A stretch of 64,000 bases of DNA from an uncultured Eubacteriales bacterium (GCA_964429695.1 CAYSCS010000101.1:19901-83900), one strand, 5' to 3'. Positions 26,864-44,882 are shown, numbered from the stretch's first letter. Translations and numbers: made by a program. Notes: generated from the sequence alone by a model not told the origin.

Positions 26864-27544
26864 TCTGATTTTTATTCAATAGTTTTCTTAATTTTTTTAA
26901 CTCTATCCCATTTTTCCTTTTTTGCCGAAAGCTTCTCGATTCACCTTACCAAACGCCTCTCCCTCTTTGACGCTTTATTTCGAGGTTATGAGTGGAGCGG
27001 AGGGAATACTTAGAGTTTATCGCTCGAGTGCCTTTCCATATTCCCGATAATGGCCAGCTTGTTGTGCATTATTAAGGCTGCTAAGCTAAGACCCATCAGG
27101 GACCGGCGAAGATGAAAAGTTTCGCAGCCTGCAAACCCCCGGCGACCTCTCTGCTTCGGTTCAGGATTTATCGCTTCACCGCCTGGTATCGAAGAATTTC
27201 TGAAGAATCGGGCTGGATTTTCCCTCAAGCACTTCACCCTTAACTTCTGGGCTGTGGGTGAACTGACCAAAAGGAAACACCATCACTCTCTCCCTCTCTC
27301 CACCTTTGGGGGCAGGTGTTCCCAAAAAGAGGCCCCTTATCAGGCTTTTGATAATCGTCTCCATATACACAAGGCAGGGGGCTAACCTCATATAAATCTT
27401 CCAGACTGGGAGCCTGCAATTTTTCATTCTCTCGCAGGCCTCCTAAGCAACCCAATTTTAACATTGGCTAATTTCTATAGTGGCATTTTTTTGATAGGCA
27501 TCGAATCAAGGCTCTGCTTCAAAGCTTGAGAGGTATTAGCAGTG

Positions 27545-29400
<1,856 letters not shown>

Positions 29401-30375: not shown

Positions 30376-30660
30376 ATGTATAATAATAATGAAAAATTGA
30401 TGCAAGGATTCAACACTGAATTAAAGCATAAAGGCGTCATCTTCCACATCCAGACTCAAGATAAAGGATTAGGGGCACAGTATGTGGAATCCCTCATCTA
30501 TTGCTCGGGAAAGGTCCTTGCCTCTCGGAAAACTTTCTACACATCTTTTCTCAACAGCCCTGACTTGAATGAAAAAATAAATCAAATCATAAAGACTCAA
30601 CACAGACAGATTCTTAAAGAAATTTCTGAAGGAAAATTTGATCGCTTTTTATCTCCTTGA
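30376..30660 (+). CDS. Hypothetical 94-aa protein
   Basis: An intact ORF immediately upstream of polA, 12 nt before the polA start. No recognisable motif. Confidence 0.35.
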   Translation: MYNNNEKLMQGFNTELKHKGVIFHIQTQDKGLGAQYVESLIYCSGKVLASRKTFYTSFLNSPDLNEKINQIIKTQHRQILKEISEGKFDRFLSP

Positions 30661-30672: not shown

Positions 30673-33351
30673 TTGACGGAAAAAAAGAGGCTTTTCCTTA
30701 TCGACGGAAATTCTCTCCTTTATCGTTCCTATTACGCCATCCAGAGACTTTCAACCTCTGAAGGATTCCCCACCAATGCCATCTATGGCTTTCTTACCAC
30801 CCTGAAGAAACTCAGGGAAAAGGAGAAACCTGATTACCTGGGGATTGTCTTCGACACTCAAGGACCTACCATCCGCCACGAAGCCTTCAAAGAATACAAG
30901 GCCCACCGCAAGCCTATGCCAGAGGATCTGATGAGTCAGCTCCCTGTGCTCAAAAGACTGATCAATGCACTTAACCTCGTCTTTTTTGAGTATGAAAATT
31001 ATGAAGCTGATGACGTCATCGCCAGCCTTGCCCGTCTTGCTTCATTGAGGGGCATTCATACTGTCATTGTTTCCACGGATAAAGATTTACTCCAAATTGT
31101 GGACGAGAAAACAACCCTTTACAACCCGGCAAAAGAGATTTATCTGGATGAGAAGAGCGTGGAAGACTCTTTCGGCGTCTCTCCTTCACAGGTGGCAGAT
31201 GTTCTTGCCCTCTGGGGAGACCCTTCTGATAACATCCCGGGGGTCCCAGGAATTGGAGAAAAAACCTCAAAGACTCTGCTCAAGGAATTTGGCTCGCTTG
31301 AAAATCTCATCTGTAACCTTGAAAAGGTGAAGAATCCTCGCTTGAGAGAAAGCATAAGACAAAATCTTGATCGCCTGAAAATAAGTCAACAACTGGCAAA
31401 AGTCAAAAGGGATCTTCCCTTGAGCCTTGACTTAGAAAAACTCTCAGTTTCTGAGCCAAACTACCGGGAACTAATTCCTCTTCTTCATGAACTTGAGTTT
31501 TCCTCCCTCCTCCAGGATTATTCACGAAGAACAGATGACACAAAGAAAAAATATAAAGCAGTCCTCAACGAGGATGAACTTCAGGCTCTCCTTAATGAAG
31601 CGAAAAGAAAAGGCTTTCTGGCCCTAGATACAGAAACCACAAGTCCGTTTCCTGTTCGAGCTCAGCTTGTAGGGCTTTCATTATCCTGGGAGGAGAATGA
31701 GGCCTTCTATATTCCCCTGAGGCATGACTATCCTGGAGCACCTCCCCAGATTCCGGTGGAAAAGGCAATTTCGCTTCTTAAAAAGATTCTTTCTGATTCC
31801 TCGGTGAGGAAAATAGGGCAGAACATAAAATATGACTCCATTGTCCTAGAAAAGGAAGGGTTAAAACTCGAAGGAATTGACCTAGACACCATGGTCCTTT
31901 CTTACTTGTTAGAGCCAAACTGGGGAAAACACAGCCTCGATCGAATCGCCCTTCATTACCTCCAGACAAAAACCATCTCTTATGAGGAGCTAGTGGGAAA
32001 AAGGCAAAAAGAAGTCACGGTAAACAAGATTCCCCTCGAGAAGGTAACTCCCTATGCGTGTCAGGACGCAGACCTTGCCCTCCAACTGAGCAGCCTTCTC
32101 TGGAAGAAGGTTAAAGAAAAAAATCTGGATAAACTCTACAGAGAAATTGAACTCCCGCTCATCAATGTCCTCGCAGATATGGAAAAGTGGGGAGTTAAAA
32201 TTGACCCCGAAGTTCTAAAAGCCCTTTCCCTTGAACTAGAATGCGAGCTTAAATATCTTGAAGAAAAAATATTCCACATCTCAGGAATCGAATTCAACAT
32301 CAACTCTCCCCAGCAACTGGGCCATATTCTCTTCGAAAAAATGAATCTTCCTTCTTCAAAAAAGACAAGGAGATCCAAGAGATATTCAACAGATTTTAAT
32401 GTCTTACAGGACCTTACTCCTTCTTTTCCCATTGCAAGATATCTCATCGAATACAGACAGCTCTCAAAATTGAAATCAACCTACGCCGACTCCCTCCCCC
32501 TTCTCATCCATCCCGATACAGGAAGGATTCACACTTCTTACAATCAGACTGTAACCGCAACAGGAAGGCTTTCAAGCAGCGATCCTAATCTCCAGAATAT
32601 CCCTGCAAGGGGAGAGCTCGGACGTAAGTTCCGCGAGGCTTTTATCCCCGAACAAAATTGCTTTTTCCTTCGTGCCGATTACTCTCAGATTGAACTCAGG
32701 GTCTTGGCTCATCTCTCAGAAGACCCCGTGCTTATCGAAACCTTTCTCAGCGACAGAGACATTCATCAAGAAACCGCGACCCGAGTTTTTGGTGCTTTCT
32801 CCTCTCTTTCACCAGAAGAGATGCGCAGGAAAGCAAAGATAATTAACTTCAGCATCATCTATGGTGCCTCGGCTTTTTCTCTCGCCAGAGAATTGGAAAC
32901 CACTCCTTCCGAGGCGCAGAAATTTATCCAGGTTTATTTCTCCCAGCATCCAAAAGTCGAGGATTTCCTGAACATGAAAGTCAAGGAGGCAAGCGAAAAA
33001 GGTTATGCAGAAACGATTTTTGGGAGGAAACGCTCCATACCCGAGCTTAAACATAAAAACAAGGCTTCTCAGCTTGCAGGAAGACGCATCGCCCTTAACA
33101 CTCCCATCCAGGGCACAGCAGCCGATTTGATGAAGAAAGCCATGGTAGATATCTGGAAAGAAATGAAGAGAAGAAAACTCAACTCAAAAATGATTCTCCA
33201 AGTTCATGATGAACTTGTCTTTGAAGTGCCCGATGGAGAGAGAGAGGAAATGGAATCCCTCGTCCGCCAGAAAATGGAAAAGGTTTTCCCTTTAAAGGTC
33301 CCCTTAAAAGTTCATCTTTCCTGGGGGATAAACTGGGCAGAGGCAAAATAG
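30673..33351 (+). CDS. polA: DNA polymerase I
   Basis: The 5'-3' exonuclease N-terminus reads 'LFLIDGNSLLYRSYYA'. The 3'-5' exonuclease domain shows 'LALDTETTS'. The polymerase motifs 'RRKAKIINFSIIYG' and 'LQVHDELVFEV' are present. Confidence 0.95.
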   Translation: MTEKKRLFLIDGNSLLYRSYYAIQRLSTSEGFPTNAIYGFLTTLKKLREKEKPDYLGIVFDTQGPTIRHEAFKEYKAHRKPMPEDLMSQLPVLKRLINALNLVFFEYENYEADDVIASLARLASLRGIHTVIVSTDKDLLQIVDEKTTLYNPAKEIYLDEKSVEDSFGVSPSQVADVLALWGDPSDNIPGVPGIGEKTSKTLLKEFGSLENLICNLEKVKNPRLRESIRQNLDRLKISQQLAKVKRDLPLSLDLEKLSVSEPNYRELIPLLHELEFSSLLQDYSRRTDDTKKKYKAVLNEDELQALLNEAKRKGFLALDTETTSPFPVRAQLVGLSLSWEENEAFYIPLRHDYPGAPPQIPVEKAISLLKKILSDSSVRKIGQNIKYDSIVLEKEGLKLEGIDLDTMVLSYLLEPNWGKHSLDRIALHYLQTKTISYEELVGKRQKEVTVNKIPLEKVTPYACQDADLALQLSSLLWKKVKEKNLDKLYREIELPLINVLADMEKWGVKIDPEVLKALSLELECELKYLEEKIFHISGIEFNINSPQQLGHILFEKMNLPSSKKTRRSKRYSTDFNVLQDLTPSFPIARYLIEYRQLSKLKSTYADSLPLLIHPDTGRIHTSYNQTVTATGRLSSSDPNLQNIPARGELGRKFREAFIPEQNCFFLRADYSQIELRVLAHLSEDPVLIETFLSDRDIHQETATRVFGAFSSLSPEEMRRKAKIINFSIIYGASAFSLARELETTPSEAQKFIQVYFSQHPKVEDFLNMKVKEASEKGYAETIFGRKRSIPELKHKNKASQLAGRRIALNTPIQGTAADLMKKAMVDIWKEMKRRKLNSKMILQVHDELVFEVPDGEREEMESLVRQKMEKVFPLKVPLKVHLSWGINWAEAK

Positions 33352-33360
33352 CAACTTGTT

Positions 33361-34497
33361 TTATAGCCATTTCTTATAGACCCGATAGATTTTATAAATT
33401 TTTCCCCCCATTCTTTCCATCTCGGCTCTTACTCGTAGATTTGACTCCATTTCATGATGGGTATCGATAACCTCAAAGCCAGCCTCTTGAGCCGAGCGAA
33501 TCATCTTCACACCCATGAGCACATCAATCCCTAGTCCTCTGTATCTTTCTTTAATCGCCCCTAAGAGCAAATCCAGCTGTTTAGTTTTCTTAGCAGCCCT
33601 AAGGATTTTTAGAAAGCCAAACGGGAAAAGCCTTCCCCTTGCTCTCTGGATACCTTGGGTAAAATCTGGAAGGCCGACGATAAAAGCAATAATTTCCTCA
33701 TCTTTTTTTACTATTTTCACAAAGCGAGGGTCAATCAAAGGCAAATATCTCCTAGCTAAGTCTTCCATCTCCCTTTCATCAAGAGGTGTATAACCGTAAA
33801 TGTTGCTCTGGGTATAACATTCATTCATCAGCCCGAGCACAGGCTTAATCCATTGTTTGAGGTCTTTTTTCTTCCGAAATTCAAGGATTTCAAAATTTCC
33901 CCTCTTCTTTATTCTTTCATAAATCTTAAGGTAGAAATCAGGGACCTGTTTAGGAACTTCTAATTTGTAAACAAAATAATCCACATCCTTTGTGTAACCC
34001 ATTTTTTCTACGAATCTTGGCATCCAATCAAAATTATGGTAAGTGGCTATTGTAGCCCGATTTTCAAAACCCTTGATCAGAAAGCCCTCAGGATCCTGGT
34101 CTGAAAAACCGTAAGGCCCGACGATTTTCTCCATTCCTCTCTCTTTTGCCCAGTTCTCAACCTTTTCCAGTAAAGCTCTAACCACCTCCTCATCTTCCCA
34201 TGTCTCAAGATAGCCAAATCTCGCTGTTTTCTCCTTTTTGTAACTGTTGTAGCGATTATTTATAATCCCCATTATCCTTCCCACTACTTGCTCCTCTCTC
34301 AAGGCAAGAAGAAGGGTGGTTTCACAATAGGAAAAGGCCTTATTCTTTTTTGGGTTGAAATATTTCCACTCGTCAAAATAAAGAGGAGGAACCCATGTCT
34401 TGTGAGTGGCGTGGATTTTCTCCGGGAGATAAATGAACTCCCTCAAATCCTTGCGGCTTTTTACTTCTTTGATTGTGATCTTCATCGAGCTCCTCAA
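33361..34497 (-). CDS. Conserved hypothetical protein, possibly a two-domain GNAT/FemAB-like acyltransferase
   Basis: 378 aa. The layout 'LREFIYLPEKIH...WVPPLY' plus an acyl-CoA N-acyltransferase-like core resembles FemAB-related or BioF2-like acetyltransferase families. This is weakly supported by eye. Confidence 0.35.
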   Translation of the reverse strand: MRSSMKITIKEVKSRKDLREFIYLPEKIHATHKTWVPPLYFDEWKYFNPKKNKAFSYCETTLLLALREEQVVGRIMGIINNRYNSYKKEKTARFGYLETWEDEEVVRALLEKVENWAKERGMEKIVGPYGFSDQDPEGFLIKGFENRATIATYHNFDWMPRFVEKMGYTKDVDYFVYKLEVPKQVPDFYLKIYERIKKRGNFEILEFRKKKDLKQWIKPVLGLMNECYTQSNIYGYTPLDEREMEDLARRYLPLIDPRFVKIVKKDEEIIAFIVGLPDFTQGIQRARGRLFPFGFLKILRAAKKTKQLDLLLGAIKERYRGLGIDVLMGVKMIRSAQEAGFEVIDTHHEMESNLRVRAEMERMGGKIYKIYRVYKKWL

Positions 34498-35217
34498 CCT
34501 CTTTCGTCTTTTTAGATTTATCCTACATTGTCTTTAAAAAATCAATAGTCTCTTTTGTCTTCGTTTTTCGATTCGAAAACAAAATAAATATTCTCCGCCA
34601 TGGTTAATCTCTTGACGGATAGATAAAATTTTTTATGCTTGATTTGTGAATAAAAGATATAATTTTTGTGGCCTGGGAAGATTAAGAGTTAAGCGCTCGC
34701 CGCGGATTTATTAGTCATTACTTTGAAAGGCAAAAGATGTTCTCTACCGATTTCTTTTCAAAACTAGATATCTATCAACTAATTCGAAGAAGAGAAAAAT
34801 TAAGAAAGGGGAAAAGAAGGAGAAGCAGAAGTAAAAAACCTGAGGAGCAGCGATTCCTCCACAAATTCCTTTGGTGCTCTCCTTGGCTGAGGAGCAGAGG
34901 TGTTTTTCAATTAAAAACTGATTGAAGGGGAAGATTAGAGCTTGTTGCCTCATGAGGAAATCCATACCAAACCATAATCATTCCCTCAAGTAAGAATCTC
35001 TACTAAAACTTATACGCCTTACCTTCTTAGCTGATAATTAGAGACCATCTCTTTTATCATTTCTTGTCTTTTCCTTTTGAACAATTTTTGAGTAGATTTT
35101 CTCATGGAGCAATGAGTCATTTTCATATAGATTCTAAGTGAGGCAATTCGCGAGGTTGACAAGCGGAAGAAAAGATGATTAAAATTCACATCTATATATT
35201 TAATCCTGATTGTTACG

Positions 35218-36537
35218 ATGAGACTTGCCACATTTCCCCGTGGTATTTATCCTCCTGAATTAAAAGAGAGTACAGAAAACAAGCCCCTTGAAAAAATGCC
35301 TCCGCCAGAAAGGGTGATGATTCCTCTCCTCCAGCACTTCGGCAATCCTGCTCAGCCTTTGGTCAAGAAGGGAGATGAAGTTTATCTAGGCCAAAAAATA
35401 GGAGAAGGGAAATCTCTCTTTTCTTCTTCCGTCCACGCAAGTGTTTCCGGAAAAGTTCTCGCCGTTGAAGACTTCCCCCATCCTCTTGGTAGCCCTGTAC
35501 TCAGCGTAAGTATAGCCAATGACGGGAAAGATCGCACCGAAGAAGGGCCTAAGGACTCAAAGGATCCCTTCACCCTTACACCAGATGAGATTCGGAATAG
35601 AGTTAGGGAGGCAGGGATTGTCGGTCTTGGGGGCGCAGCTTTCCCAACCTCTGTAAAACTTACTCCGCCAAAAGACAAACCCATTGATACAGTAATCATC
35701 AATGGGTGTGAATGTGAACCATTCCTTACCTCTGATTACAGGCTGATGATTGAATACCCAGATGACATCCTTAATGGAGCAGAGCTGATTCGGATTGCAT
35801 GCGGGGCACAGAAAATAATCATCGGGATTGAGGATAACAAGAAAAAGGCCTTTGAAATCTTATCCCCAAAGAGCAAAAGACCCGAAGTGAAGGTTGTGCT
35901 CTTAAAGACAAAATATCCTCAGGGAGCAGAAAAAAACCTCATCTTCGCCCTCCTTAGACGAGAGGTTCCGAGAGGGGGCCTTCCCTTTGATGTCGGAGTT
36001 GTGGTCCAGAATGTGGGCACCTCCAAAGCAATCTGGGAGGCTGTCAGTAAAGCCAAGCCTCTCTACGAAAGAGCGCTTACAGTCTCAGGAGATGCTGTCA
36101 GAGAACCCAAGAACCTCTTGGTTCGGATTGGGACACCTTTCAAGAATGTATTAGATTTCTGCGGGGGATTGAATGACAACGCTTCCTTGGTAGTAATGGG
36201 AGGCCCGATGATGGGGGTTTCACAGGGCCTTTTGGAAGTCCCTGTGGTAAAGGGGACTTCTGGAATTTTAGCCTGGGAAAAGGCCCCTTCCTTTATTGAA
36301 TTTCCCTGCATCCGTTGTTCCCGATGCATCTCTCATTGCCCCATGGGCCTTGTTCCCACGCAAATCATAAAATACGTGAAATATGATGACTTAGAAAACG
36401 CCGAGGCCTGGGGGGTGCTCGATTGTATTGAATGCGGTTGTTGCCAATATGTCTGCCCGGCAAAAATTCCTCTTGTTCACTGGCTTCGAATCGGAAAGTC
36501 AAGAATCTTCAGCATCAGAAAGAAAAAGAAGGAATGA
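35218..36537 (+). CDS. rnfC: Rnf electron transport complex subunit C (NADH-binding, 2x[4Fe-4S])
   Basis: Carries 'SGKVLAVEDFPHPLG' and 'GIVGLGGAAFPTSVKL'. The C-terminus carries CxxCxxCxxxCP x2. Confidence 0.92.
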   Translation: MRLATFPRGIYPPELKESTENKPLEKMPPPERVMIPLLQHFGNPAQPLVKKGDEVYLGQKIGEGKSLFSSSVHASVSGKVLAVEDFPHPLGSPVLSVSIANDGKDRTEEGPKDSKDPFTLTPDEIRNRVREAGIVGLGGAAFPTSVKLTPPKDKPIDTVIINGCECEPFLTSDYRLMIEYPDDILNGAELIRIACGAQKIIIGIEDNKKKAFEILSPKSKRPEVKVVLLKTKYPQGAEKNLIFALLRREVPRGGLPFDVGVVVQNVGTSKAIWEAVSKAKPLYERALTVSGDAVREPKNLLVRIGTPFKNVLDFCGGLNDNASLVVMGGPMMGVSQGLLEVPVVKGTSGILAWEKAPSFIEFPCIRCSRCISHCPMGLVPTQIIKYVKYDDLENAEAWGVLDCIECGCCQYVCPAKIPLVHWLRIGKSRIFSIRKKKKE

Positions 36538-37517
36538 TGAGTAAGGTAGAGAAAACCTTGATCTTACAATCTTCTCCACATCTGAGGGATAGAGAATCTG
36601 TTCCAAGAATCATGTATACTGTGGTTTTAGCACTTGTGCCCCCTATTGCAGCGTCTCTCTATTTTTTCAGATTGAGGGCTGCGGTCCTCCTCTTCTCCTG
36701 TGTTCTTGCTTCTCTAACGACAGAGGCTCTTTTCCTCTGGCTGAGAAAGAAACCCTTCTTCTTCATCTTGGATGGCTCTGCAATCATAACCGGACTCCTC
36801 CTGGCGATGACCCTCCCCCCATCCATTCCCCTCGACATTGCAGTTCTAGGTGCGTTTGTAGCCATCTCGCTGGGCAAACAGGTTTTTGGAGGGCTGGGCT
36901 ATAATATTTTTAATCCTGCTCTCGTAGGGCGCGCTTTTCTGCAGAGTGCCTTTCCTGTGGCCATGACAACCTGGATTCCACCTGTCACCCTGAAGGTAGA
37001 TACGGCCACCTTCGCCACCCCCCTCGGGAATCTAAAGTTCCAACATGCTCTTTCTCTCGGCACCCTCACTCCTTTAAAGGAACTTTTCTGGGGAAATATT
37101 GGCGGATGTTTGGGTGAAACTTCTGCCTTCGCCATTCTCCTTGGAGCTTCATATTTAATCTACCGTCGAACCATTGACTGGCGTATTCCCTTGGGAATAA
37201 TAACCTCTCTCTTTATCTTCACAGGGGCGCTCTGGATTGCTAGTCCCTTTAAATTCGCCCCTCCTCTCTTCCATCTCTTCGCAGGAGGGCTTCTTATAGG
37301 AGCTTTCTTTATGGCTACTGACATGGTCACCTCTCCTCTCCATAAGACGGGAATATGGATATATTCGGTTGGCATAGGATTAATCATCTCTCTAATTCGT
37401 CTCTTTGGTGGTTTCCCCGAAGGAGTCATGTATTCCATCCTTTTCATGAACGCCTTTGTTCCACTCTTAAATCGATTTACCAGACCACGAATTTTGGGAG
37501 AAAGAAGAAGAAAATGA
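36534..37517 (+). CDS. rnfD: Rnf complex subunit D (membrane, FMN-binding)
   Basis: A polytopic membrane protein with RnfD/NqrB-like similarity. The probable start is 'MMSKVEK', overlapping the rnfC stop by 4 nt; the six-frame ORF begins earlier, at 36432. Confidence 0.88.
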   Translation: MMSKVEKTLILQSSPHLRDRESVPRIMYTVVLALVPPIAASLYFFRLRAAVLLFSCVLASLTTEALFLWLRKKPFFFILDGSAIITGLLLAMTLPPSIPLDIAVLGAFVAISLGKQVFGGLGYNIFNPALVGRAFLQSAFPVAMTTWIPPVTLKVDTATFATPLGNLKFQHALSLGTLTPLKELFWGNIGGCLGETSAFAILLGASYLIYRRTIDWRIPLGIITSLFIFTGALWIASPFKFAPPLFHLFAGGLLIGAFFMATDMVTSPLHKTGIWIYSVGIGLIISLIRLFGGFPEGVMYSILFMNAFVPLLNRFTRPRILGERRRK

Positions 37518-38119
37518 GTCTCTCAGCAAGAATAATTCTAGTTCTTACCTGTGTGGGTCTTCTCTCAGGTGGATTTCTTGCCACGGTGGGACTCTTAACC
37601 AAAGAGAGAATAGCCCTAAATAGAGAGAAAGAGATAGAAGAAGCCATCCTCGCGGTAGTCCCTGGCGCAAGTTCCAGCCAAAAATTATATGAAGGAGAAG
37701 GGCTTACCATTTACGCTGGAAAAGATGCTTCTGGAGTATTAAGAGGTTATGCCATACATGCTTCAGGAGTAGGCTTTCAGGATAAAATTGTGCTTATGTT
37801 TGGAACTAATCCCGCCCTTACCAAGATAAGAAAACTTGCCGTTCTTGAACAGAAAGAGACCCCTGGCCTGGGCGCAAAAATAACAGATGAGGAATCTTTC
37901 TTGAGATACTGGGAAGAGAAAGATTGCACAACAGAACTCAAGCTCCGCAAGCCTGCAGCAAGTTCTCCACAAGAACTCTCCCCTTCCGAAGTCAACACCA
38001 TTACCGGAGCTACAATCTCATCTGAGGCCGTTTTAAAAACAGTAAATCTTTCCCTTAAGCTCCTGAAGGGGTTGCAATTGGAGCGAGAGCTCTTAGGCGA
38101 GGAAAAAGATGAAGAATAG
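37514..38119 (+). CDS. rnfG: Rnf complex subunit G (FMN-binding, periplasmic)
   Basis: An N-terminal TM anchor reads 'MSLSARIILVLTCVGLLSGGFL'. The flavinylation motif 'TITGATISS' is present. The probable start overlaps the rnfD stop; the six-frame ORF begins at 37355. Confidence 0.85.
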   Translation: MSLSARIILVLTCVGLLSGGFLATVGLLTKERIALNREKEIEEAILAVVPGASSSQKLYEGEGLTIYAGKDASGVLRGYAIHASGVGFQDKIVLMFGTNPALTKIRKLAVLEQKETPGLGAKITDEESFLRYWEEKDCTTELKLRKPAASSPQELSPSEVNTITGATISSEAVLKTVNLSLKLLKGLQLERELLGEEKDEE

Positions 38120-38720
38120 GACTCTTGCAGAAGATTTTTATAAAGGACTTTGGCAAGAGAACCCTATCTTCCGTCAGTTGCTCGGAATGTGCCCCACCCT
38201 TGCTGTGACCAATGCCGTAATCAATGGGATTGCTATGGGATTGGCAGTCGCCTTTGTGTTAATCTTCAGCTCAGTGATTATTTCTTCCCTAAAAAAAATC
38301 TTTCCACCTCAAGTTAGAATTGCAAGTTACATTGTCATCATCGCCACTTTCGTCACCATCGCCGATCGCTTTCTTCAAGCCTTCTTCCCTTCGATTTCTA
38401 AAAGCCTGGGACCATACGTCCCTCTTATAGTAGTAAATTGCATCATACTTGCTCGACAAGAGGCATTCTCTTCAAAGAACCCTGTCGGTCGCTCTTTCAT
38501 CGATGCCTTGGGTATGAGCGCCGGGTTTATGCTTGGACTTCTCATCCTCAGCTCTATAAGAGAAATCCTGGGTTCAGGGACTTTTCTGGGCTATCAAGTC
38601 CTGGGGAGCTGGTTTAAACCCTGGTTGATCATGATCCTTCCTCCCGGAGCCTTCATGACTCTGGGCATCCTCCTTGCCCTTGCCATTCAAATTGAGAAAA
38701 AGTTAAAGTCAAGGAGTTAA
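38109..38720 (+). CDS. rnfE: Rnf complex subunit E
   Basis: A polytopic membrane protein carrying 'LLGMCPTLAVTNA', the RnfE/NqrD signature. Confidence 0.9.
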   Translation: MKNRTLAEDFYKGLWQENPIFRQLLGMCPTLAVTNAVINGIAMGLAVAFVLIFSSVIISSLKKIFPPQVRIASYIVIIATFVTIADRFLQAFFPSISKSLGPYVPLIVVNCIILARQEAFSSKNPVGRSFIDALGMSAGFMLGLLILSSIREILGSGTFLGYQVLGSWFKPWLIMILPPGAFMTLGILLALAIQIEKKLKSRS

Positions 38721-38724
38721 AGAA

Positions 38725-39300
38725 GTGGATATCTTCACCATCTTTGTCTCATCCATCTTAATCAACAACTTCGTGCTCCACTACTTCCTTGGAATCTGTC
38801 CTTTTCTTGGGGTGAGTAAAAAACTTGATTCTGCTTTTTCCATGGGTCTTTCTGTAACTTTTGTGATGACCATCACCGCCTCTGTTTCCTGGCTCATAAA
38901 CCACTTGATCCTCATCCCTTACAATCTGGATTACCTCCAGATTGTCTCCTTCATCCTGGTCATCGCCTCGCTTGTTCAGCTGGTTGAAATGTTTATCCGT
39001 AAAATGAGCCCTCCGCTTTACCAGGCAATGGGAATCTACCTCCCCCTGATCACCACGAATTGTTGCATCATGGGTCTTGCCCTCCTCATCGCCCTCAAAG
39101 ATTATGGGTTCATCGAAGCCGTTGTCTTTGGGGTTGGGTCGGGAATTGGCTTTACTCTAGCCATACTGTTGATGGCAGGGATTAGAGAGCAACTTGAAAT
39201 CTCGGACTTACCAGAGCCTCTCAGAGGAGCTTCAATTGCTCTTATCGTTGCAGGAATTATGGCCCTTGGCTTTCTCGGATTTTCGGGAATGATAAAATGA
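38725..39300 (+). CDS. rnfA: Rnf complex subunit A
   Basis: A polytopic membrane protein carrying 'FLGICPFLGVSKK', the RnfA/NqrE signature. Confidence 0.9.
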   Translation: MDIFTIFVSSILINNFVLHYFLGICPFLGVSKKLDSAFSMGLSVTFVMTITASVSWLINHLILIPYNLDYLQIVSFILVIASLVQLVEMFIRKMSPPLYQAMGIYLPLITTNCCIMGLALLIALKDYGFIEAVVFGVGSGIGFTLAILLMAGIREQLEISDLPEPLRGASIALIVAGIMALGFLGFSGMIK

Positions 39301-40106
39301 CGAATCTCCTGGTCCCAATCTTAACCATGGGAGGGCTCGGCCTCCTCTTCTCTGTTGGTCTTGTCTTTGCCTATAAGAAACTCCGGGTAGAGGAAGACCC
39401 CAGGGTGGAAAAAATCGCTGAAATACTCCCTCAGGCAAACTGCGGGGCATGTGGTTTTTCAGGTTGCCGCAATTTTGCCGAAGCAGTGGTAAAAGGGTCT
39501 GCTTCTCCATCCAGCTGTCCTGTTGGAGGAGAACAGGTTGCAAAGCAAATTGCTGAGACCCTCGGTATCTCAGCTGGAGAAGTGATTAAGAAAGTAGCAA
39601 GAATCCATTGTCGGGGCACGTGGCAAGCAGCTAAACCCAGAGGAAATTACGCAGGCATCCCTACCTGCCTTGGAGCTCAGCTAATAGGAGGGAACAAGCT
39701 TTGTAGCTACGGATGTCTGGGCCTCGGCGACTGCGTGAGGGCATGTCTTTTTGACGCCATGTTCATGAATGAAGATGGCCTGCCAGAGGTAAGAGAAGAT
39801 AAATGTACAGCCTGTGGAAAGTGCGTCGAGGCCTGCCCGCGAAACATCATTGAACTCCATCCTCTCTCTCACAAAATAATTGTCTTCTGTCGTTCCAAGG
39901 ATAGAGGGGCTGTGTCAAAAAAAGCGTGTCACAATGCCTGCATTGCCTGCGGAATATGTGCCAGGGCAGCCCCAGAAGCAATCATAATGGAAAACAACCT
40001 TGCCAAAATAATTGATTATAATAAAATTAAAGATGAGCAGGTTCTTGAAATAGAAAAATGTCCAACAGGAGCAATAGGAAGGCTGGAGAAGAGGGATGAA
40101 GGATAA
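39297..40106 (+). CDS. rnfB: Rnf complex subunit B (ferredoxin-type)
   Basis: An N-terminal TM helix is followed by 'CGACGFSGCRNFAEAV' and multiple CxxCxxCxxxCP motifs. Confidence 0.88.
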   Translation: MTNLLVPILTMGGLGLLFSVGLVFAYKKLRVEEDPRVEKIAEILPQANCGACGFSGCRNFAEAVVKGSASPSSCPVGGEQVAKQIAETLGISAGEVIKKVARIHCRGTWQAAKPRGNYAGIPTCLGAQLIGGNKLCSYGCLGLGDCVRACLFDAMFMNEDGLPEVREDKCTACGKCVEACPRNIIELHPLSHKIIVFCRSKDRGAVSKKACHNACIACGICARAAPEAIIMENNLAKIIDYNKIKDEQVLEIEKCPTGAIGRLEKRDEG

Positions 40107-40539
40107 AGCAAAAGTTATAAGCATCGAAGGGGAATTCTCACGGGTAGAAGTCCAATGCCTCTTCACGGCGTGCGAGAGATGCTCAGCACGCAATCTATGC
40201 AGAGGAGATGACCCAGATTCCAGGCTCTTGCTCGTTAAAAATCCTCTTGGGGCAAAACCTGGAGACATGGTGACAATCGAGGTTCCTGAAGACTCTTACA
40301 CTAGAAGTTTAATCTCTATCTTCGGCTTCCTGCTTTTATCTTCTCTTCTGGGAATGGGACTAGGCTTTTTGTCTTCACGGTTGGTTGTTTTTTCTCCCGA
40401 GATATTGAGCATCGCGGGGCTTCTCTCTGGCCTCTTCATCTGTGGCTTTTTACTTTTAAACCGTTTTCGAAAAAAAAACTTACTCACCCTTTACCCTGTT
40501 ATAATTTCAATCTTAAATAAAGGAGAGGACAATGGATAG
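40096..40539 (+). CDS. rseC: RseC/MucC family protein (SoxR-reducing system / sigma-E positive regulator-like), associated with Rnf
   Basis: A Cys-containing N-terminus ('VQCLFTACERCSARNLCRG') is followed by two TM helices. This is the typical RseC arrangement, located after rnf/rsx genes. Confidence 0.7.
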   Translation: MKDKAKVISIEGEFSRVEVQCLFTACERCSARNLCRGDDPDSRLLLVKNPLGAKPGDMVTIEVPEDSYTRSLISIFGFLLLSSLLGMGLGFLSSRLVVFSPEILSIAGLLSGLFICGFLLLNRFRKKNLLTLYPVIISILNKGEDNG

Positions 40540-41266
40540 ACGTTCCTTTCTGGGTTCAATCATCCTTACTCCGCTCTTATCCCATTTTTTAAATGCAGAT
40601 GAGAGACAACCTTCAACTCTCAGCCTCCATTTAATATCCGATTTTCCGCATGATTTTTTGCCCCAGATTCTTTATGACTTAAGAGAGAGAGGTATCAATT
40701 TCGGCCGCAGAGTTTGGTTTCCGGAAAATACTCCTTATAGAATGCAGCTCGAAAAATCGTTTTCTGCTAACGGCTGGGAGGTAGCTAAAAACACCTCAAC
40801 TGCCTCTTTTATCCTCAATCATAATCTCTTAAGCAGAGAAAGCCTTCCCTCCTTTTCCCTTGTTGAAAAGGGAAGGGTGAAAGACATAAGGTCAGGAAAA
40901 CTAATTCATCTCTGGAAAGAAATGGTCAAAAGGAATCCCTCTTCTTCTCTCTTAACCACTGCTACTTTAAAGAAAGGTTTTCCTTCTTTATCTTCAGGAG
41001 AGGAGGCTACCGTATTCTTCATGGGGAGAAAAAGAGCAATTTTATCTCTTAAAATAGACAAGATTTATCTCTTCCGCCATAAGCAACATGAAATCTGTGT
41101 AAAAATTGAGAAAAGGAAGGCATGGGTAGAATCATCTTCCTGCTCCCAAAAAATCTGCTGCCATACCCCTCCTGCCTCCCTTGAGGGAGAGCGCATCATC
41201 TGCGCTCCCAATCATTTCATCCTGGAGATAAACCCCTCTCCTTCAATAGATACATCAGTTGGATAA
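40532..41266 (+). CDS. Hypothetical secreted protein with a C-terminal Cys cluster, embedded in the rnf-apbE operon
   Basis: 244 aa with an N-terminal signal-like 'MDRRSFLGSIILTPLLSHFLNA'. The C-terminus reads 'SSSCSQKICCHTPPAS...ICAPNHF'. It overlaps both neighbouring genes by 8 nt, and no known domain is recognised. Confidence 0.5.
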   Translation: MDRRSFLGSIILTPLLSHFLNADERQPSTLSLHLISDFPHDFLPQILYDLRERGINFGRRVWFPENTPYRMQLEKSFSANGWEVAKNTSTASFILNHNLLSRESLPSFSLVEKGRVKDIRSGKLIHLWKEMVKRNPSSSLLTTATLKKGFPSLSSGEEATVFFMGRKRAILSLKIDKIYLFRHKQHEICVKIEKRKAWVESSSCSQKICCHTPPASLEGERIICAPNHFILEINPSPSIDTSVG

Positions 41267-42203
41267 AAAATCATCTCTCCTTATAGTTTTTTTCCCTTTA
41301 TTCCTTATCATCTTTTATTTATCCTGCAAAAGGGAAGTGGCTTGGCATTCCTCCACCCTTCTTTTTTTCGATACGGTGTGCGAAATTAAACTTCTTTGCA
41401 CTCCTTCTCAATTCAAGAACGGCGAGAAAGTTGTGGGAAATTTGTTTGAGTCGATTGAAAAAGAATTTTCACCAGAATCCTACAACAATTCTTCAGATTC
41501 ACTAATAAAATTATTCAAGATCGCACTCAAGATTCATCATGACTCTCAAGGCTCTTTCGATATTAGTGTCGGAGCTCTTTCGAAGGTCTGGGGCTTTAAG
41601 AATAAAGCATACAGAGTCCCTCATCTCTTTGAGATTGAGGAAACGCTCAAGCATGTGGGAATGGAAAAAATAAAAATAGATGAAAATTCTCTCTGGCTCC
41701 CTGAGGGTATGGAGCTTGACTGGGGAGGAATTGCAAAGGGGTATGCCGTCGACTTGGCTTCTCAAGAACTTAGGAAAAGGGGAATCTTAAATGGATTTAT
41801 AAACGCAGGAGGAGACCTTTTTTGCTGGGGGCAAAACCCTGAGCACAAGCCGTGGAAGATAGGAATTAAACATCCTCGCGAACCTGGTTTTTTAGGTATA
41901 CTCTCGATTTCCAATTTAGGCGCTTCAACAACCGGCGACTACCAGCGCTATTTTGAGGTCAAGGGAAAAAGATATCATCATGTGTTTAATCCATTTACGG
42001 GCTTCCCTTCCTCTTTTTATCAAAGTGTAACGGTAGTCGGACCTGAAACGACGATATGCGACGCTCTTTCTACGGCTCTCTTTGTTTCGCCTGAACAAGA
42101 AAAAATAATCCGCCTCTATCCCGAATATGGAGTGATTATTGTCGATTCGAAGGGAAAACTTAAAACGTTAGGGAAAAAATATCCCTTTTCACCCCTCGGT
42201 TAG
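41259..42203 (+). CDS. apbE: FAD:protein FMN transferase (flavin transferase ApbE)
   Basis: Carries 'DWGGIAKGYAVD', 'GASTTGDYQRYF' and 'TVVGPETTICDALSTALFV', all ApbE signatures. Confidence 0.9.
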   Translation: MDKKSSLLIVFFPLFLIIFYLSCKREVAWHSSTLLFFDTVCEIKLLCTPSQFKNGEKVVGNLFESIEKEFSPESYNNSSDSLIKLFKIALKIHHDSQGSFDISVGALSKVWGFKNKAYRVPHLFEIEETLKHVGMEKIKIDENSLWLPEGMELDWGGIAKGYAVDLASQELRKRGILNGFINAGGDLFCWGQNPEHKPWKIGIKHPREPGFLGILSISNLGASTTGDYQRYFEVKGKRYHHVFNPFTGFPSSFYQSVTVVGPETTICDALSTALFVSPEQEKIIRLYPEYGVIIVDSKGKLKTLGKKYPFSPLG

Positions 42204-43300
42204 ATTTTCATGGGCATTAATACATATAAATACTGAATTTCATCGTCAACTTCTGGCTTCATCATCACGGCACTATTCTCATCTTTAATCTCAACTACAA
42301 CTCTTTCGTTTTTAACTGTATTCAAGAAATCAAGGAGGTATTGAGAATTAAATCCTATTTCCATCTCCTTCCCTTCATAATCTACTTGTATTCTATCATG
42401 AGCTTCTCCCATTTCCGGACTCGAAGAGAAGAGGTCAACTTGTTTTTTTGAGAGGAAAAGTTTAATGCCTTTTGACCTCTCGGATGAAAGAAGAGAAACC
42501 CTTTTTATTGAGCTAGCCATTTCATCTCGAGAAAAAGAAAGCCTATTAGGATTATCCCGCGGCATGACAGCCTCATAATTAGGAAACTTCCCTTCAATCA
42601 TTCTTGAAATTAATGTCTTATTTTTTACCCTGAAAAAAAGATTGTTTTCGTCCAGGTCAAACTCAATATCCTCTCCATCTAGTTTTTTTATTTCTCCCAA
42701 GGTTTTTTTGGAAACTATTCCTCTCAATTCACCTCCTATCTTCAATCCTTCCAGCTCCTTTTTTGTGTACGATAATCTATGGCCATCCGTACTAACCAGC
42801 TCTATCGATTTATCCTTGATTATCATCAACGCGCCGTTTAGATAATATCGCTGCTCTTGAGTAATAGCATAATAAACCCTATCTATCATCTCCTTGACTT
42901 CTTCTAAGGGAAGAGATATTCCTTTCTCAAACCTGGGCTCAGGAATTTGGGGATAGTCTTCATGTGGTAAACACAGGATCTTAAATTCGCTTGCTCCGGA
43001 TGTAATTTCCATTCTCAACCCTTCAATTTCTTTAAAAGTTATCAACTGTCCATCAGGAATTGATCTCACTATTTCAAATATTTTCTTTCCTGAAACCGTC
43101 AATGCCCCTTCATCTTCTATCCTGGCCGGGAAATGGGTTATCATTCCTACTTCAAGGTCTGTACCTACCATCTCAACCTCATCTTTCTTAACTTTCAACA
43201 GAATATTGGCAAGAATGGGCATTGTATTTTTCTTCTCCACTATCCCCTGTAAAATTTGGAGCTCACCTACTATTTCCTCTTTATTGATTGAAAAAATCAT
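42200..43300 (-). CDS. dnaN: DNA polymerase III beta subunit (sliding clamp)
   Basis: 366 aa, beginning 'MIFSINKEEIVGELQILQGIVEKKNTMPILANILLKV'. Confidence 0.95.
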   Translation of the reverse strand: MIFSINKEEIVGELQILQGIVEKKNTMPILANILLKVKKDEVEMVGTDLEVGMITHFPARIEDEGALTVSGKKIFEIVRSIPDGQLITFKEIEGLRMEITSGASEFKILCLPHEDYPQIPEPRFEKGISLPLEEVKEMIDRVYYAITQEQRYYLNGALMIIKDKSIELVSTDGHRLSYTKKELEGLKIGGELRGIVSKKTLGEIKKLDGEDIEFDLDENNLFFRVKNKTLISRMIEGKFPNYEAVMPRDNPNRLSFSRDEMASSIKRVSLLSSERSKGIKLFLSKKQVDLFSSSPEMGEAHDRIQVDYEGKEMEIGFNSQYLLDFLNTVKNERVVVEIKDENSAVMMKPEVDDEIQYLYVLMPMKI

Positions 43301-43418
43301 TTCTTCACCTTTTAAATACTTTTTTCTTATTATATATTTCTTATTATATATGCTTATTATTAAAAATAATAATAAAAATCAAACTAAATGTGGAAATCTA
43401 TCGTAATTTATTTATTCT
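43301..43418. promoter_or_regulatory. AT-rich putative DNA-unwinding element with a DnaA-box-like site, between dnaA and dnaN (oriC candidate, part 2)
   Basis: The stretch is more than 85% A+T, with direct repeats 'cttattatatat' x2 plus 'cttattatta'. The site 'TGTGGAAAT' matches the DnaA-box consensus at 7 of 9 positions. Confidence 0.5.
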
Positions 43419-44750
43419 TCAGTAAATCTGGCTGATCAAACTGTTTATTTCTTTGTTGAATTCCGGGTCTTTAGACCTGAGCTTTTCAATTTTTCTAATG
43501 CTGTGTAAGACTGTTGTGTGATGTTTTCCACCGAATTTTCTACCTATTTCAGGCAGAGAACTTTTACTCAACTCCTTGCACAAATACATGGCAATTTGTC
43601 GGGGAAAAGCAACTTTTGGAGAATTGTTTCTAGATTTCAATTCAGAAAGCTTAATTTTAAATCTATGACAAATCACCTTCTGTATTTTTTCCACAGTCAC
43701 AGAAACTTCTGTTTCATCAAGCAATCCCTTTAAGGCTTCTTTAGCCAGTTCAAGGTCAATTGGTTCTCCTCTTAGAGAGGAAAAGACGATTACTCTCCTT
43801 AAATACCCCTCTAACTCTCTTATGTTCGAATGAACTTTATCTGCAATGTAAAGAGCCACGCTTTCAGGGAGGTTGATTCCTTCTAACTCAGATTTTTTCT
43901 TAAGAATGGCAATTCTTGTCTCAATGTCTGGAGGTTTTAAATCTGCAATCAAACCCCATTCGAATCTTGAACTGAAACGTTCTTCAAGGTTGGGAATCTC
44001 TTTTGGAGGGCAGTCTGAGGAGATGACAATCTGTTTCTGATTATCATAAAGATGGTTAAAGGTGTGAAAAAATTCTTCTTTCGTTCTTTCTCTTCCAGAA
44101 AGGTAGTGGATATCATCCATCAACAGAACATCCACTTCCCTGTACTTTTGTCTGAAATCGAGAATTTTTCCGTATTGAAGATGATTAATTAAATCGTTCA
44201 TAAATTTTTCTGTAGTGATGTAAAGAATTTTGAGACGCTGATTATTTTTCAAAGTCAGGTGGCCAATTGCATTCATTAGATGGGTTTTGCCCAGTCCTGC
44301 ACCTCCGTAAATAAAAAGGGGGTTGTATGACTTAGCCGGGTTTTTTGAGACCGCCAAAGAGGCTGCATGGGCAAACTGATTGCAGGAGCCGACGACGAAA
44401 TTTTCGAAGGTGTAATTGGGATTAAGATTGGGATTTAGAATTGACCCCTGTTTCGAGCGACGCTCAAGGGGGGAGACGCGCATAAATGAACTCGATTTTT
44501 CATCAAATATGTAATGGATATCAAAGACAGCACCAAGAATTTCTTTTGAACAGGAATTGATAAGCTCAGAATAATGGAAGGAAAGCCAATCTTTGAAATA
44601 TGAGTTAGGGACTTTGATGTACAGAACATCCTTTTCTTTTCCTATGTAAGAGGTTGGCTCAAACCAGGTTTCGAAGCTCTGTTGGTCAATTTTTTTCCTT
44701 ATGGCTTCCACAATTTGAAGCCAAATGTTTGATTTTTCCTCAGATTCCAT
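43419..44750 (-). CDS. dnaA: Chromosomal replication initiator protein DnaA
   Basis: Carries AAA+ 'GGAGLGKTHL' and 'LLMDDIHYLSG'. The C-terminal DNA-binding region 'IAMYLCKELSKSSLPEIGRKFGGKHHTTVLHSIRKIE' is present. Confidence 0.95.
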   Translation of the reverse strand: MESEEKSNIWLQIVEAIRKKIDQQSFETWFEPTSYIGKEKDVLYIKVPNSYFKDWLSFHYSELINSCSKEILGAVFDIHYIFDEKSSSFMRVSPLERRSKQGSILNPNLNPNYTFENFVVGSCNQFAHAASLAVSKNPAKSYNPLFIYGGAGLGKTHLMNAIGHLTLKNNQRLKILYITTEKFMNDLINHLQYGKILDFRQKYREVDVLLMDDIHYLSGRERTKEEFFHTFNHLYDNQKQIVISSDCPPKEIPNLEERFSSRFEWGLIADLKPPDIETRIAILKKKSELEGINLPESVALYIADKVHSNIRELEGYLRRVIVFSSLRGEPIDLELAKEALKGLLDETEVSVTVEKIQKVICHRFKIKLSELKSRNNSPKVAFPRQIAMYLCKELSKSSLPEIGRKFGGKHHTTVLHSIRKIEKLRSKDPEFNKEINSLISQIY

Positions 44751-44882
44751 TTTTCATTCAGATTTTCACAGATTTTTCCACAACTGTGGAAAAATTAGCC
44801 CTCCTTTGTGACAAAAAACTTGAAGGCTTGCATATGATAGCACCCTTAAAAATAGATATCAATATGTTTATAAAAAATATTT
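44751..44882. promoter_or_regulatory. DnaA-box cluster upstream of dnaA (oriC candidate, part 1)
   Basis: An inverted DnaA-box pair 'TTTTCCACAACTGTGGAAAA' is present (TTTTCCACA and TGTGGAAAA, 8 of 9 each against TTATCCACA). 'TTTTCACAG' lies nearby. Confidence 0.55.

Follow-up and report, generated by a model that had tools for sequence, protein, structure and literature searches.

Rnf complexes accompanied by the membrane protein RseC and the flavin transferase ApbE are known biology. The locus described here raises a further question: what does a 244-codon gene placed between rseC and apbE contribute to such a system? The locus lies within a 64-kb window (the whole 64,000-nucleotide stretch of DNA analysed) and consists of nine plus-strand open reading frames at 35218-42203, in the order rnfCDGEAB-rseC-orf244-apbE and at the coordinates given in a preliminary description of this DNA.

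35156..35185, + strand: predicted sigma-70-like promoter, TTGACA-18 nt-TAAAAT; 11/12 match, the best in 33300-43500
35218..36537, + strand: rnfC, 439 aa; NADH/FMN-binding, 2x[4Fe-4S] subunit; TIGR01945, 534 bits; Pfam RnfC_N, Complex1_51K, SLBB, Fer4
36534..37517, + strand: rnfD, 327 aa; membrane subunit; TIGR01946, 341 bits
37514..38119, + strand: rnfG, 201 aa; periplasmic FMN-binding subunit; Pfam FMN_bind, 51.7 bits
38109..38720, + strand: rnfE, 203 aa; TIGR01948, 228 bits, and PF02508
38725..39300, + strand: rnfA, 191 aa, GTG start; TIGR01943, 265 bits, matched from position 1
39297..40106, + strand: rnfB, 269 aa; ferredoxin-side polyferredoxin subunit; TIGR01944, 112 bits (cut-off 68.7); Pfam FeS, Fer4
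40096..40539, + strand: rseC, 147 aa; two-TM membrane protein; PF04246, 57.5 bits
40532..41266, + strand: orf244, an eetA-like gene, 244 aa; PF07009 (NusG_II/DUF1312)
41259..42203, + strand: apbE, 314 aa, TTG start; FAD:protein FMN transferase; PF02424, 224 bits

The rnf operon and its predicted transcription

Family models identify each gene of the complete Rnf complex (C, D, G, E, A, B), as well as rseC and apbE, in agreement with the preliminary description. Among the six Rnf subunits, five score above cut-off on their respective models (TIGR01945, TIGR01946, TIGR01948, TIGR01943 and TIGR01944). RnfG scores just below cut-off on TIGR01947 (90.7 against 102) but passes FMN_bind and occupies the G position. 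RnfB additionally reaches 210-260 bits with PRK07118-type RnfB models, with NF005503 giving 223.7 against a cut-off of 252. The complex is a predicted energy-conserving, ion-translocating ferredoxin:NAD+ oxidoreductase of the membrane.

With start codons picked to fit the family models, the successive junctions from rnfC to apbE measure -4, -4, -11, +4, -4, -11, -8 and -8 nt. The start of rnfD at 36534 thus gives a 4-nt overlap with rnfC, rnfE overlaps rnfG by 11 nt, and a 4-nt gap separates rnfE from rnfA. The genes do overlap or abut as first described, though the spacing spans 4-11 nt rather than 4-8 nt and includes this one gap.

The predicted promoter ends 33 nt before rnfC. In relatives, a TTGACA box and, after it, a TAAACT/TACACT-like -10 element stand equally far from rnfC; of 49 related loci, 45 have a promoter match of at least 10/12 no more than 120 nt from rnfC. 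A search for internal promoters and terminators, which the preliminary description had proposed, found promoter-like sites inside the operon in only 2 of the 49 relatives and terminator-like matches at chance level (15 found, 12.7 +/- 3.9 expected). Co-transcription is supported because the upstream promoter is kept, internal sites are not conserved and terminators do not exceed chance; in this Candidatus Aminicenantes bacterium, rnfC to apbE probably form a single compact unit transcribed from the conserved sigma-70-type promoter.

The interval 34498-35217 had been described as a leader of approximately 700 bp, possibly with a regulatory role. The upstream gene lies on the opposite strand, making this interval a divergent intergenic spacer. 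We rejected the leader assignment since the promoter sits so close to rnfC and the rest of the spacer is unconserved (median length in relatives, ~170 nt), without detectable structure (z = +1.8) and without a match in an Rfam search.

ApbE, its predicted targets and RseC

ApbE, a flavin transferase that faces the periplasm, draws on FAD to link FMN covalently to the threonine of the TGAT (RnfG) and TFAT (RnfD) motifs. The TGAT motif previously noted in RnfG is present at aa 164-167 (38003-38014) within VNTITGAT, where the N-terminal residue of the motif is N in place of the canonical D; [ST][GA]AT is kept in relatives. In RnfD the corresponding stretch is VDTATFAT, with TFAT at aa 159-162 (37008-37019) and an aromatic residue replacing the glycine; T[FY]ATPL is kept in ~55 relatives. 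The ApbE protein itself scores far above the PF02424 cut-off of 25.6. It was rejected as an equivalog of the enterobacterial protein (PRK10461, 105 against a cut-off of 498). Its N-terminus, MDKKSSLLIVFFPLFLIIFYLSC, is hydrophobic and contains a cysteine within an imperfect lipobox-like sequence (...FYLSC; Y-L-S-C), and relatives have similar N-termini.

Both Escherichia coli and Clostridium ljungdahlii need RseC for Rnf/Rsx function; the protein spans the membrane with two helices, and its CX2CX5C motif, on the cytoplasmic side, is able to bind an Fe-S cluster. The protein encoded here matches PF04246 over aa 7-136 (cut-off 24.4), gave no match in an NCBIfam search, and has two predicted helices, read from the translation as hydrophobic stretches at ~aa 70-93 and 100-122. 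Its N-terminal CX4CX2CX5C comprises C21, C26, C29 and C35 (40156-40200); the CX2CX5C portion (C26-x2-C29-x5-C35) occurs in all relatives and the first cysteine is variable. The same cysteine pattern is functional in E. coli RseC (PMC11729352). The earlier remark that SoxR is not obvious here agrees with our finding no SoxR-type C-x-GCGC motif within the window. The Rnf-linked, SoxR-independent role then suggested for RseC has been published before: in C. ljungdahlii, Rnf-dependent autotrophy requires rseC, and several acetogens have the gene linked to rnf (PMC9124969).

Known systems resemble this locus in part. Rhodobacter capsulatus RnfF, an RseC-ApbE fusion, and E. coli Rsx with RseC and ApbE likewise tie an Rnf-type complex to a CX2CX5C RseC-like protein and ApbE (PMC11729352). 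In our locus, unlike in RnfF, RseC and ApbE are two proteins, and a gene for an EetA-like protein with a Tat signal lies between theirs; the three E. coli loci are unlinked and serve SoxR reduction, whereas here they are in one operon. C. ljungdahlii and other acetogens share the order C-D-G-E-A-B and a linked rseC, genetically required there for Rnf-dependent growth (PMC9124969), but that rseC is upstream of rnfC rather than downstream of rnfB and translationally coupled to an EetA-like gene.

The EetA-like protein

The product of orf244 had been called an unknown secreted protein. Secretion is supported, through a predicted Tat signal, while its membership of the EetA/NusG_II family had been missed. 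Its features, all on the + strand, are:

40532-40606, + strand: Tat signal MDRRSFLG..., aa 1-25, with twin-arginine motif
40613-40972, + strand: orphan alpha/beta domain, aa 28-147, ~120 aa
40991-41233, + strand: NusG_II/DUF1312 domain (PF07009), aa 154-234, with invariant C204, C209 and C224
41246-41263, + strand: conserved tail IDTSVG, aa 239-244, resembling the start of an ApbE flavinylation motif, without the acceptor residue

The N-terminus, MDRRSFLGSIILTPLLSHFLNA followed by DE, combines the twin arginines with a weakly hydrophobic h-region and a small-x-small cleavage region. R3, R4 and F6 are invariant in both the close (A1) and distant (A2) homologue sets; M-[DNEH]-RR-x-F opens the gene in almost every locus, and M-[DN]-R-R-x-F is invariant across close and distant homologues. 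The protein is thus predicted to be periplasmic and Tat-exported. No fold relatives of the N-terminal domain were recognisable, and therefore nothing about it indicates flavin binding. The C-terminal domain matches PF07009 both by sequence and by fold (4esn, 4obi, 3ld7), and its three cysteines do not vary among homologues, close or distant.

The ApbE flavinylation motif is D-x-x-[S/T]-G-A-[S/T] (PMC12052999), and the orf244 tail fits its D-x-x-[S/T]-G part. A [VIL]-D-[AGT]-[IV]-x-G/x sequence ends 106 of 157 family members, and the tail has pLDDT < 50 in the predicted model. At one distant locus (L085) the tail VDAVTS can be aligned with that locus's own RnfD motif, VDAVTFAT; locus by locus within Aminicenantes, the tail did not covary with the RnfD or RnfG motif. 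The tail resembles a flavinylation motif, and the suggestion of mimicry rests on that resemblance only.

PF07009 corresponds to EetA, and eetA colocalises with eetB (PF07456, an FAD exporter) in 3,328 genomes; 2,169 genomes have eetB colocalised with apbE, and 572 Clostridia have it colocalised with Rnf (PMC9973259). Listeria and other Firmicutes EetA proteins, including those of ApbE-EetA-EetB triads, share with the orf244 protein the family, the fold, adjacency to apbE and Rnf, and a C-terminal D-[AGT]-[IV]-x tail. Typical EetA, however, has 110-135 aa and a single N-terminal TM helix, and its gene lies beside eetB (PF07456, ECF-S), whereas the orf244 protein has 244 aa, a twin-arginine signal, the extra ~120-aa orphan domain and an rseC-coupled gene, with no eetB within 10 kb in Aminicenantes loci. 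Even with E values up to 10 allowed, a tblastn search with EetB from a Clostridiales locus (L077) had no match in the window or the Aminicenantes loci. An exhaustive search returned 5,931 family matches, most of 110-135 aa; the long form is common to only ~60-70 clusters. As a Tat-type EetA-like protein coupled to RseC, the orf244 product represents an undescribed variant. Our literature search found a function by experiment for no NusG_II/EetA protein, and eetA deletion in L. monocytogenes gave no EET phenotype (PMC9973259).

Conserved linkage and the possible role of orf244

The order rnfCDGEAB-rseC-orf244 is found in ~55 independent Aminicenantes species-level loci, and because it recurs so often the arrangement is judged, on comparative sequence grounds, to be far beyond chance. 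The preliminary description had proposed this comparison and had named absence of the order from relatives as the outcome that would count against it; the order is kept. A second lineage (L085, L087) has the full nine-gene order with orf244 homologues only ~22-25% identical, and another locus (L081) has the same order without apbE. Both rseC and orf244, whose conservation between rnfB and apbE this comparison was to show or refute, are kept, while apbE itself is the variable member, missing from the immediate locus in roughly half of Aminicenantes relatives; rseC-orf244 is always with rnf.

The accessory genes rseC, orf244 and apbE are chained through overlapping stop and start codons, and evolutionary conservation of the exact overlaps bears out the translational coupling claimed earlier. 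The rseC/orf244 junction, the most tightly conserved, overlaps by exactly 8 nt in 54 of 58 loci. Where orf244 and apbE are adjacent (31 loci), 24 have the 8-nt overlap with a TTG start and 27 have the TTG triplet at the apbE start; the Ile243 codon of orf244 is ATT wherever that TTG is present.

This conservation bears on whether orf244 could be a lineage-specific passenger with no functional tie to Rnf, its tight spacing reflecting a compact genome. The family changes rapidly, at 33-43% identity against 60-83% for the Rnf subunits, and the literature assigns it no function. The exact overlaps on both sides, including constrained wobble positions, the synteny in ~55 species and in a second lineage at ~22% identity rather than in near-identical genomes only, and the recurrence of the apbE association in unrelated cluster types make this explanation extremely improbable, and it is already strongly disfavoured.

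We consider it probable that orf244 encodes a periplasmic accessory of ApbE-dependent Rnf maturation within a one-transcript nine-gene operon. The Tat-targeted protein would act on the periplasmic side, linking membrane-bound RseC or Rnf with ApbE and possibly also with its FAD supply, and would fill the place that the EetA-EetB pair holds beside ApbE and Rnf in Firmicutes. Its acceptor-less, flavinylation-motif-like tail would be the most likely point of ApbE contact. Outside rnf loci, orf244 paralogues lie directly upstream of apbE at 13 loci, and single-domain homologues adjoin apbE in two Clostridiales loci (L077, L080). In a thioredoxin-DUF4266-DUF3570-ApbE cluster (L083), the gene between DUF3570 and apbE encodes P0093, a distant homologue of the Tat type with two domains. 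DUF3570 is a proven ApbE substrate (PMC8238504), and this locus belongs with the DUF3570/DsbD-like flavinylation clusters of Meheust et al. (2021), with another substrate and electron-transfer system and neither Rnf nor RseC; orf244-type proteins thus follow ApbE across different substrate systems. The main text of that paper does not mention a NusG_II gene, and PF07009 occurs at least 12 times in its supplementary table.

The frequent absence of apbE from loci in which rseC-orf244 stays with rnf counts against a maturation role, and suggests that the orf244 protein may be tied more closely to RseC or Rnf than to ApbE.

RseC and the orf244 protein might instead control the expression of rnf as a regulatory or sensing pair, rather than be assembly or maturation factors; RseC has been termed a positive regulator. 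In C. ljungdahlii, rseC deletion down-regulated rnf transcripts in autotrophy and the authors read RseC as a regulator (PMC9124969), and the exceptional conservation of the rseC-orf244 junction would suit such a pair. Neither protein has a DNA-binding or signalling domain, however, and both genes sit at the distal end of the operon that they would regulate. RseC is a two-TM protein with a potentially Fe-S-holding motif whose E. coli interactions were tested with RsxB and RsxD (PMC11729352), and orf244 homologues track apbE. Regulation is accordingly a very unlikely role.

A redox-active periplasmic subunit, serving as electron outlet of Rnf rather than as maturation factor, is a stronger competitor, though we still think it unlikely. 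C204, C209 and C224 would receive a metal or Fe-S centre in the cytoplasm, accounting for the Tat signal, and electrons would be exchanged with the RnfG flavin or a periplasmic partner. Tat signals are typical of cofactor-bearing redox proteins, the cysteine triad is invariant across homologues, and orf244 remains with rnf-rseC even where apbE has moved away. One homologue (L086) adjoins a VIT1 iron transporter and an rnfB-first Rnf cluster. In L. plantarum, EetA is modelled as an electron-transfer component, and an eetA/B deletion lost flavin-dependent EET (PMC9888254). Against this, the paralogues pair with apbE at rnf-less loci as well as with the DUF3570 flavinylation cluster. In our alignment, two of the three cysteines are missing from Lin0431, a family member of solved structure, and the cysteine site is therefore not universal to the fold. 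No fourth invariant ligand was found, except possibly D240, and we know of no published cryo-EM structure of an Rnf complex that contains an orf244-like subunit.

Returning to maturation, a more specific and rather doubtful version casts the orf244 protein as the missing link that supplies and positions ApbE in these diderm bacteria. The protein might fold in the cytoplasm around FAD (through the orphan N-domain) or a metal (through the cysteine triad), be exported folded via Tat, possibly with handover at RseC, and dock its pseudo-flavinylation tail, I-D-T-S-V-G-COOH, in the substrate groove of ApbE. If so, it would stand in for EetB, the ECF-type FAD exporter of Firmicutes, and the EetA/DUF1312 family would gain a first mechanistic role, as ApbE adaptors.

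The rnf operon and its predicted transcription

In many anaerobes, Rnf complexes are at the heart of energy conservation. These complexes become functional only once ApbE, through FAD-dependent flavinylation in the periplasm, has placed FMN on RnfG and RnfD at the outer face of the membrane, and Rnf/Rsx function additionally needs RseC. Rnf operons, their ApbE dependence and the Rnf–RseC link are already known. At the present locus and in about 70 relatives, RseC, an EetA-like protein (here orf244) and ApbE appear to be chained translationally as a module behind rnf. The relevant features of the window are as follows.

33361-34497, minus strand: GNAT-type acetyltransferase gene, syntenic in most relatives
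34498-35217: spacer upstream of rnfC
35156-35185: top sigma-70-like match within 33300-43500, TTGACA-18-TAAAAT, 33 nt 5' of rnfC
35218-42203, plus strand: nine ORFs, head to tail, identified with Pfam and NCBIfam in the order RnfC, RnfD, RnfG, RnfE, RnfA, RnfB, RseC/MucC, NusG_II-domain protein (orf244), ApbE
37008-37019: TFAT motif of RnfD (residues 159-162)
40532-41266, plus strand: orf244, 244 aa
42200-42203: TTAG, 4 nt shared by the apbE and convergent dnaN stop codons

With starts chosen to fit the family models, successive junctions measure -4, -4, -11, +4, -4, -11, -8 and -8 nt. The preliminary description had each gene overlapping or abutting the next by 4-8 nt; the tight packing holds, while the exact range has to be corrected to -11 to +4 nt. 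It also placed a TGAT motif in RnfG, which we located at residues 164-167, and both this motif and the RnfD TFAT are kept in relatives. ApbE recognises D-x-x-[S/T]-G-A-[S/T], in which the Asp is strictly conserved and the last residue is the acceptor (PMC12052999). Against this standard, the RnfG motif opens with Asn, and in every relative (~55) the RnfD site is T-[F/Y]-A-T-P-L, so that an aromatic residue replaces the canonical Gly. The specificity of the cognate ApbE may be altered.

The preliminary description further proposed a role for RseC in Rnf, which is already published: RseC is indispensable for Rnf-dependent autotrophy and rnf-linked in several acetogens (Klask et al. 2022, PMC9124969). 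RseC has a two-TM topology and a functional CX2CX5C motif able to hold an Fe-S cluster, its interactions have been assayed with RsxB and RsxD, and RnfF of R. capsulatus is an RseC-ApbE fusion (Lee et al. 2024, PMC11729352). The RseC of the window carries C21-x4-C26-x2-C29-x5-C35, the last three cysteines being kept in all relatives. Consistent with the earlier remark that no SoxR is obvious, the SoxR-type C-x-GCGC motif is absent from every frame of the window.

The promoter is conserved. Lining up the upstream regions of 46 related loci at the start of rnfC showed a TTGACA box recurring at equal distance and, after it, a TAAACT/TACACT-like -10 element. A match of at least 10/12 lies within 120 nt of rnfC in 45 of 49 loci; only two such sites occur within 150 nt upstream of internal gene starts across all 49. 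Candidate internal promoters at 37174 and 40000 (each 10/12) have equivalents in just one of 49 relatives apiece and were taken as chance matches. Terminator-like matches in the region are no more frequent than in shuffled sequence. This pattern favours a single transcript for the nine genes. At its 3' end, the stop codon overlap between apbE and dnaN leaves no space for an intergenic terminator; in relatives these genes are 1-30 nt apart.

Two junctions are conserved to the nucleotide among loci, which provides good evolutionary evidence for translational coupling across rseC, orf244 and apbE. The rseC stop TAG sits within the orf244 start ATG-GAY-AGR (ATG-GAT-AGA in the window, 40532-40539), an 8-nt overlap found in 54 of 58 loci. 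With the stop placed there, the first arginine of the orf244 twin-arginine pair is an AGR codon, likewise in 54 of 58. Where orf244 and apbE adjoin, 24 of 31 loci again overlap by 8 nt (41259-41266 in the window): the last two codons of orf244, Ile/Val (xTT) and Gly, supply the TTG start of apbE. Where the first of these residues is Ile, the codon is ATT without exception.

Conservation of gene order and the variable placement of apbE

The operon is real and well conserved. We collected orf244 homologues with their neighbourhoods, added a species-representative genome scan (alignment A1, of close homologues) and mapped the window proteins onto the resulting 74 loci. In the comparison that the preliminary description had proposed, the order rnfCDGEAB-rseC-orf244 recurs in related genomes, wherever the contig extends far enough (~55 loci). 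Identity to the window proteins is 54-83% for Rnf subunits and just 31-43% for orf244. That orf244 is a mere passenger gene seems to us highly improbable, and a regulatory role for RseC and orf244 as a pair is only slightly less so.

The variable member is apbE. It lies directly 3' of orf244 in some loci and 4-6.5 kb downstream in others, past an inserted minus-strand sugar-catabolism cassette; in the remaining loci it is missing and dnaN follows directly. The cassette, at ~10.7-16.5 kb in locus coordinates, occurs in loci L009, L010, L014, L016, L041, L045, L047, L049, L054, L057, L060, L066, L076 and L079. It encodes Gfo/Idh/MocA oxidoreductases, a xylose-isomerase-like TIM protein with a DUF1080-like tail, an MFS transporter and a DoxX-like protein, and some of these genomes carry a second orf244 paralogue right before apbE.

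In 13 loci an orf244 paralogue is immediately 5' of apbE with no rnf nearby. L047 and L049 hold both copies, and L012 and L020 represent two copies from one MAG. In a rough neighbour-joining tree, apbE-linked copies mostly group together. Where the module is split, the EetA-like gene thus stays with either RseC or ApbE, a recurrent association among the ~70 relatives. A different reading makes orf244 a redox-active additional Rnf subunit working through its cysteine triad. We regard this as unlikely, if still plausible because rseC-orf244 stays with rnf more faithfully than apbE does.

Source names of homologues indicate that the window comes from a Candidatus Aminicenantes (OP8) genome. Many contigs labelled "uncultured Eubacteriales bacterium" (L008, L009, L012, L014-L017 and others) carry a locus of Aminicenantes type, fully syntenic and with proteins 60-80% identical; the label looks like placeholder taxonomy rather than a sign of Firmicutes origin.

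A long EetA-like protein with a Tat signal

Rivera-Lugo et al. 2023 list PF07009, the family of orf244, as EetA in their supplementary table, and PF07456 as EetB, the ECF-S subunit of a FAD exporter supplying the ApbE-like FmnB (PMC9973259). The same study colocalised eetA and eetB in 3,328 genomes, found eetB near apbE in 2,169 genomes and near Rnf in 572 Clostridia, and reported that EET is unaffected by eetA deletion in L. monocytogenes. Gammaproteobacterial ApbE-EetA-EetB triads also feature in its table, as does a neighbourhood of RseC and RnfC in Pelosinus. In Meheust et al. 2021 (PMC8238504), NusG_II and RseC are absent from the text and PF07009 is present in the cluster table. Searches under the names DUF1312 or NusG_II found no functional literature, and FAD's route to ApbE is described as "still obscure" (2025 review, PMC12052999). 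The label "NusG domain II-containing protein" is misleading, as these proteins are unrelated to transcription.

An alignment of 16 homologues has an invariant M-D-R-R-x-F N-terminus (a twin-arginine signal), a P-S-F motif, D118, R120, W128, C204, C209, G-E-R-I-I-C224-A-P and a C-terminal D240-T241-x-x-G244. An AlphaFold2 model (pLDDT 80) has a disordered signal region, an alpha/beta domain (residues 28-147, pLDDT ~85-93), a beta domain (residues 155-235) and a tail of low confidence. Exhaustive profile searching returned 5,931 family members, of which only 67, below 1e-30, are the long form; the others are mostly single-domain, TM-anchored proteins of 110-135 aa. Remote long-form members are few; at 217-255 aa and 17-24% identity, they keep D240, all three cysteines and the twin-arginine signal. 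The gene contexts of these remote forms (X) are as follows.

P0082: rnfCDGEAB-rseC-X
P0085 and P0167: rnfCDGEAB-rseC-X-apbE, matching the nine-gene set of the window
P0093: thioredoxin-DUF4266-DUF3570-X-apbE; DUF3570 is a proven ApbE substrate (Meheust et al. 2021, PMC8238504)
P0126: VIT1-X-rnfB-PFOR-rnfC-rnfD

Short forms lie directly 3' of apbE in two Clostridiales loci, one of which (L077) has an EetB-like membrane protein next. Neither the window nor any Aminicenantes locus, within 10 kb, has an EetB homologue.

Together, the signal and gene associations suggest that orf244 would be exported by the Tat system and act in the periplasm as an accessory in ApbE-dependent Rnf maturation, where it would bridge RseC or Rnf and ApbE and fill the place of EetA-EetB of Firmicutes. 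We considered whether orf244 is itself an ApbE substrate and rejected this: it lacks a [ST][GAFYS]A[ST] motif, as do distant homologues.

Beyond the Pfam model, the extreme C-terminus of the PF07009 family follows [VIL]-D-[AGT]-[IV]-[STIV]-G/x in 106 of 157 sequences. D-[AG]-[IV]-[ST] tails occur family-wide and in many phyla, as in short members (P0094-P0163; L077, 6469-6894) with endings such as ...IDGITGGRQ, ...VDAISG and ...LDAITE. Tails of this kind resemble the substrate motif over its opening five or six residues and stop short of the acceptor.

ApbE-substrate motifs and C-terminal tails of PF07009 proteins at the same locus
Locus; substrate motif; tail
Window; RnfG VNTITGAT, RnfD VDTATFAT; IDTSVG-COOH
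L085; RnfD VDAVTFAT; VDAVTS-COOH
L081; RnfG VNAISGAT; VDAIVG-COOH
L083 (without Rnf); DUF3570 LDAYTSAT; YDAATY-COOH

Within Aminicenantes the tail and the RnfD/RnfG motifs do not covary locus by locus. The match is a family-level resemblance, and we treat it as a lead, not a demonstration. No mention of the EetA/DUF1312 C-terminal tail was found in the literature consulted, nor a description of a long, Tat-signal, RseC-coupled EetA without EetB or of its duplication between rseC and apbE. The invariant Tat signal and half-motif tail, both previously unremarked, make it possible to derive testable hypotheses from what was a vague association, and the operon offers a handle on what EetA/DUF1312 and RseC do and on ApbE supply in diderm bacteria.

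Flanking regions

The ~700-bp region preceding rnfC had been suggested as a leader that may hold regulation. Because the upstream gene is on the opposite strand, 34498-35217 is instead a divergent intergenic region, and we found nothing to support a regulatory leader or riboswitch: the region has no Rfam match (E up to 1), 34640-35000 does not fold better than shuffles (z = +1.81), and comparison with 86 related loci (blastn and tblastx) yielded only a 31-nt match, beside the GNAT gene. The spacer is 720 nt long in the window versus mostly 127-280 nt in relatives; the extra ~500 nt, within 34498-35155, are AT-rich (35% GC), unconserved and unstructured. The GNAT protein (378 aa, Pfam Acetyltransf_1 E = 3e-6), encoded divergently from rnfC, has no evident functional tie to Rnf.

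On the other side, the cumulative GC skew computed for 30-46 kb is lowest at ~43.5-44 kb, and the dnaN-dnaA spacer (43301-43418 and 44751-44882) has ~31% GC and a 14-nt tandem repeat at 43323-43360. The skew minimum and this spacer place the rnf operon beside a probable replication origin, and the rnf...dnaN-dnaA placement is kept in relatives. Further upstream, 26863-30376 is sparsely coding and may represent decayed genes; its minus-strand ORF 28398-28970 is an S41 peptidase fragment (Pfam E = 2.6e-5, partial model cover).
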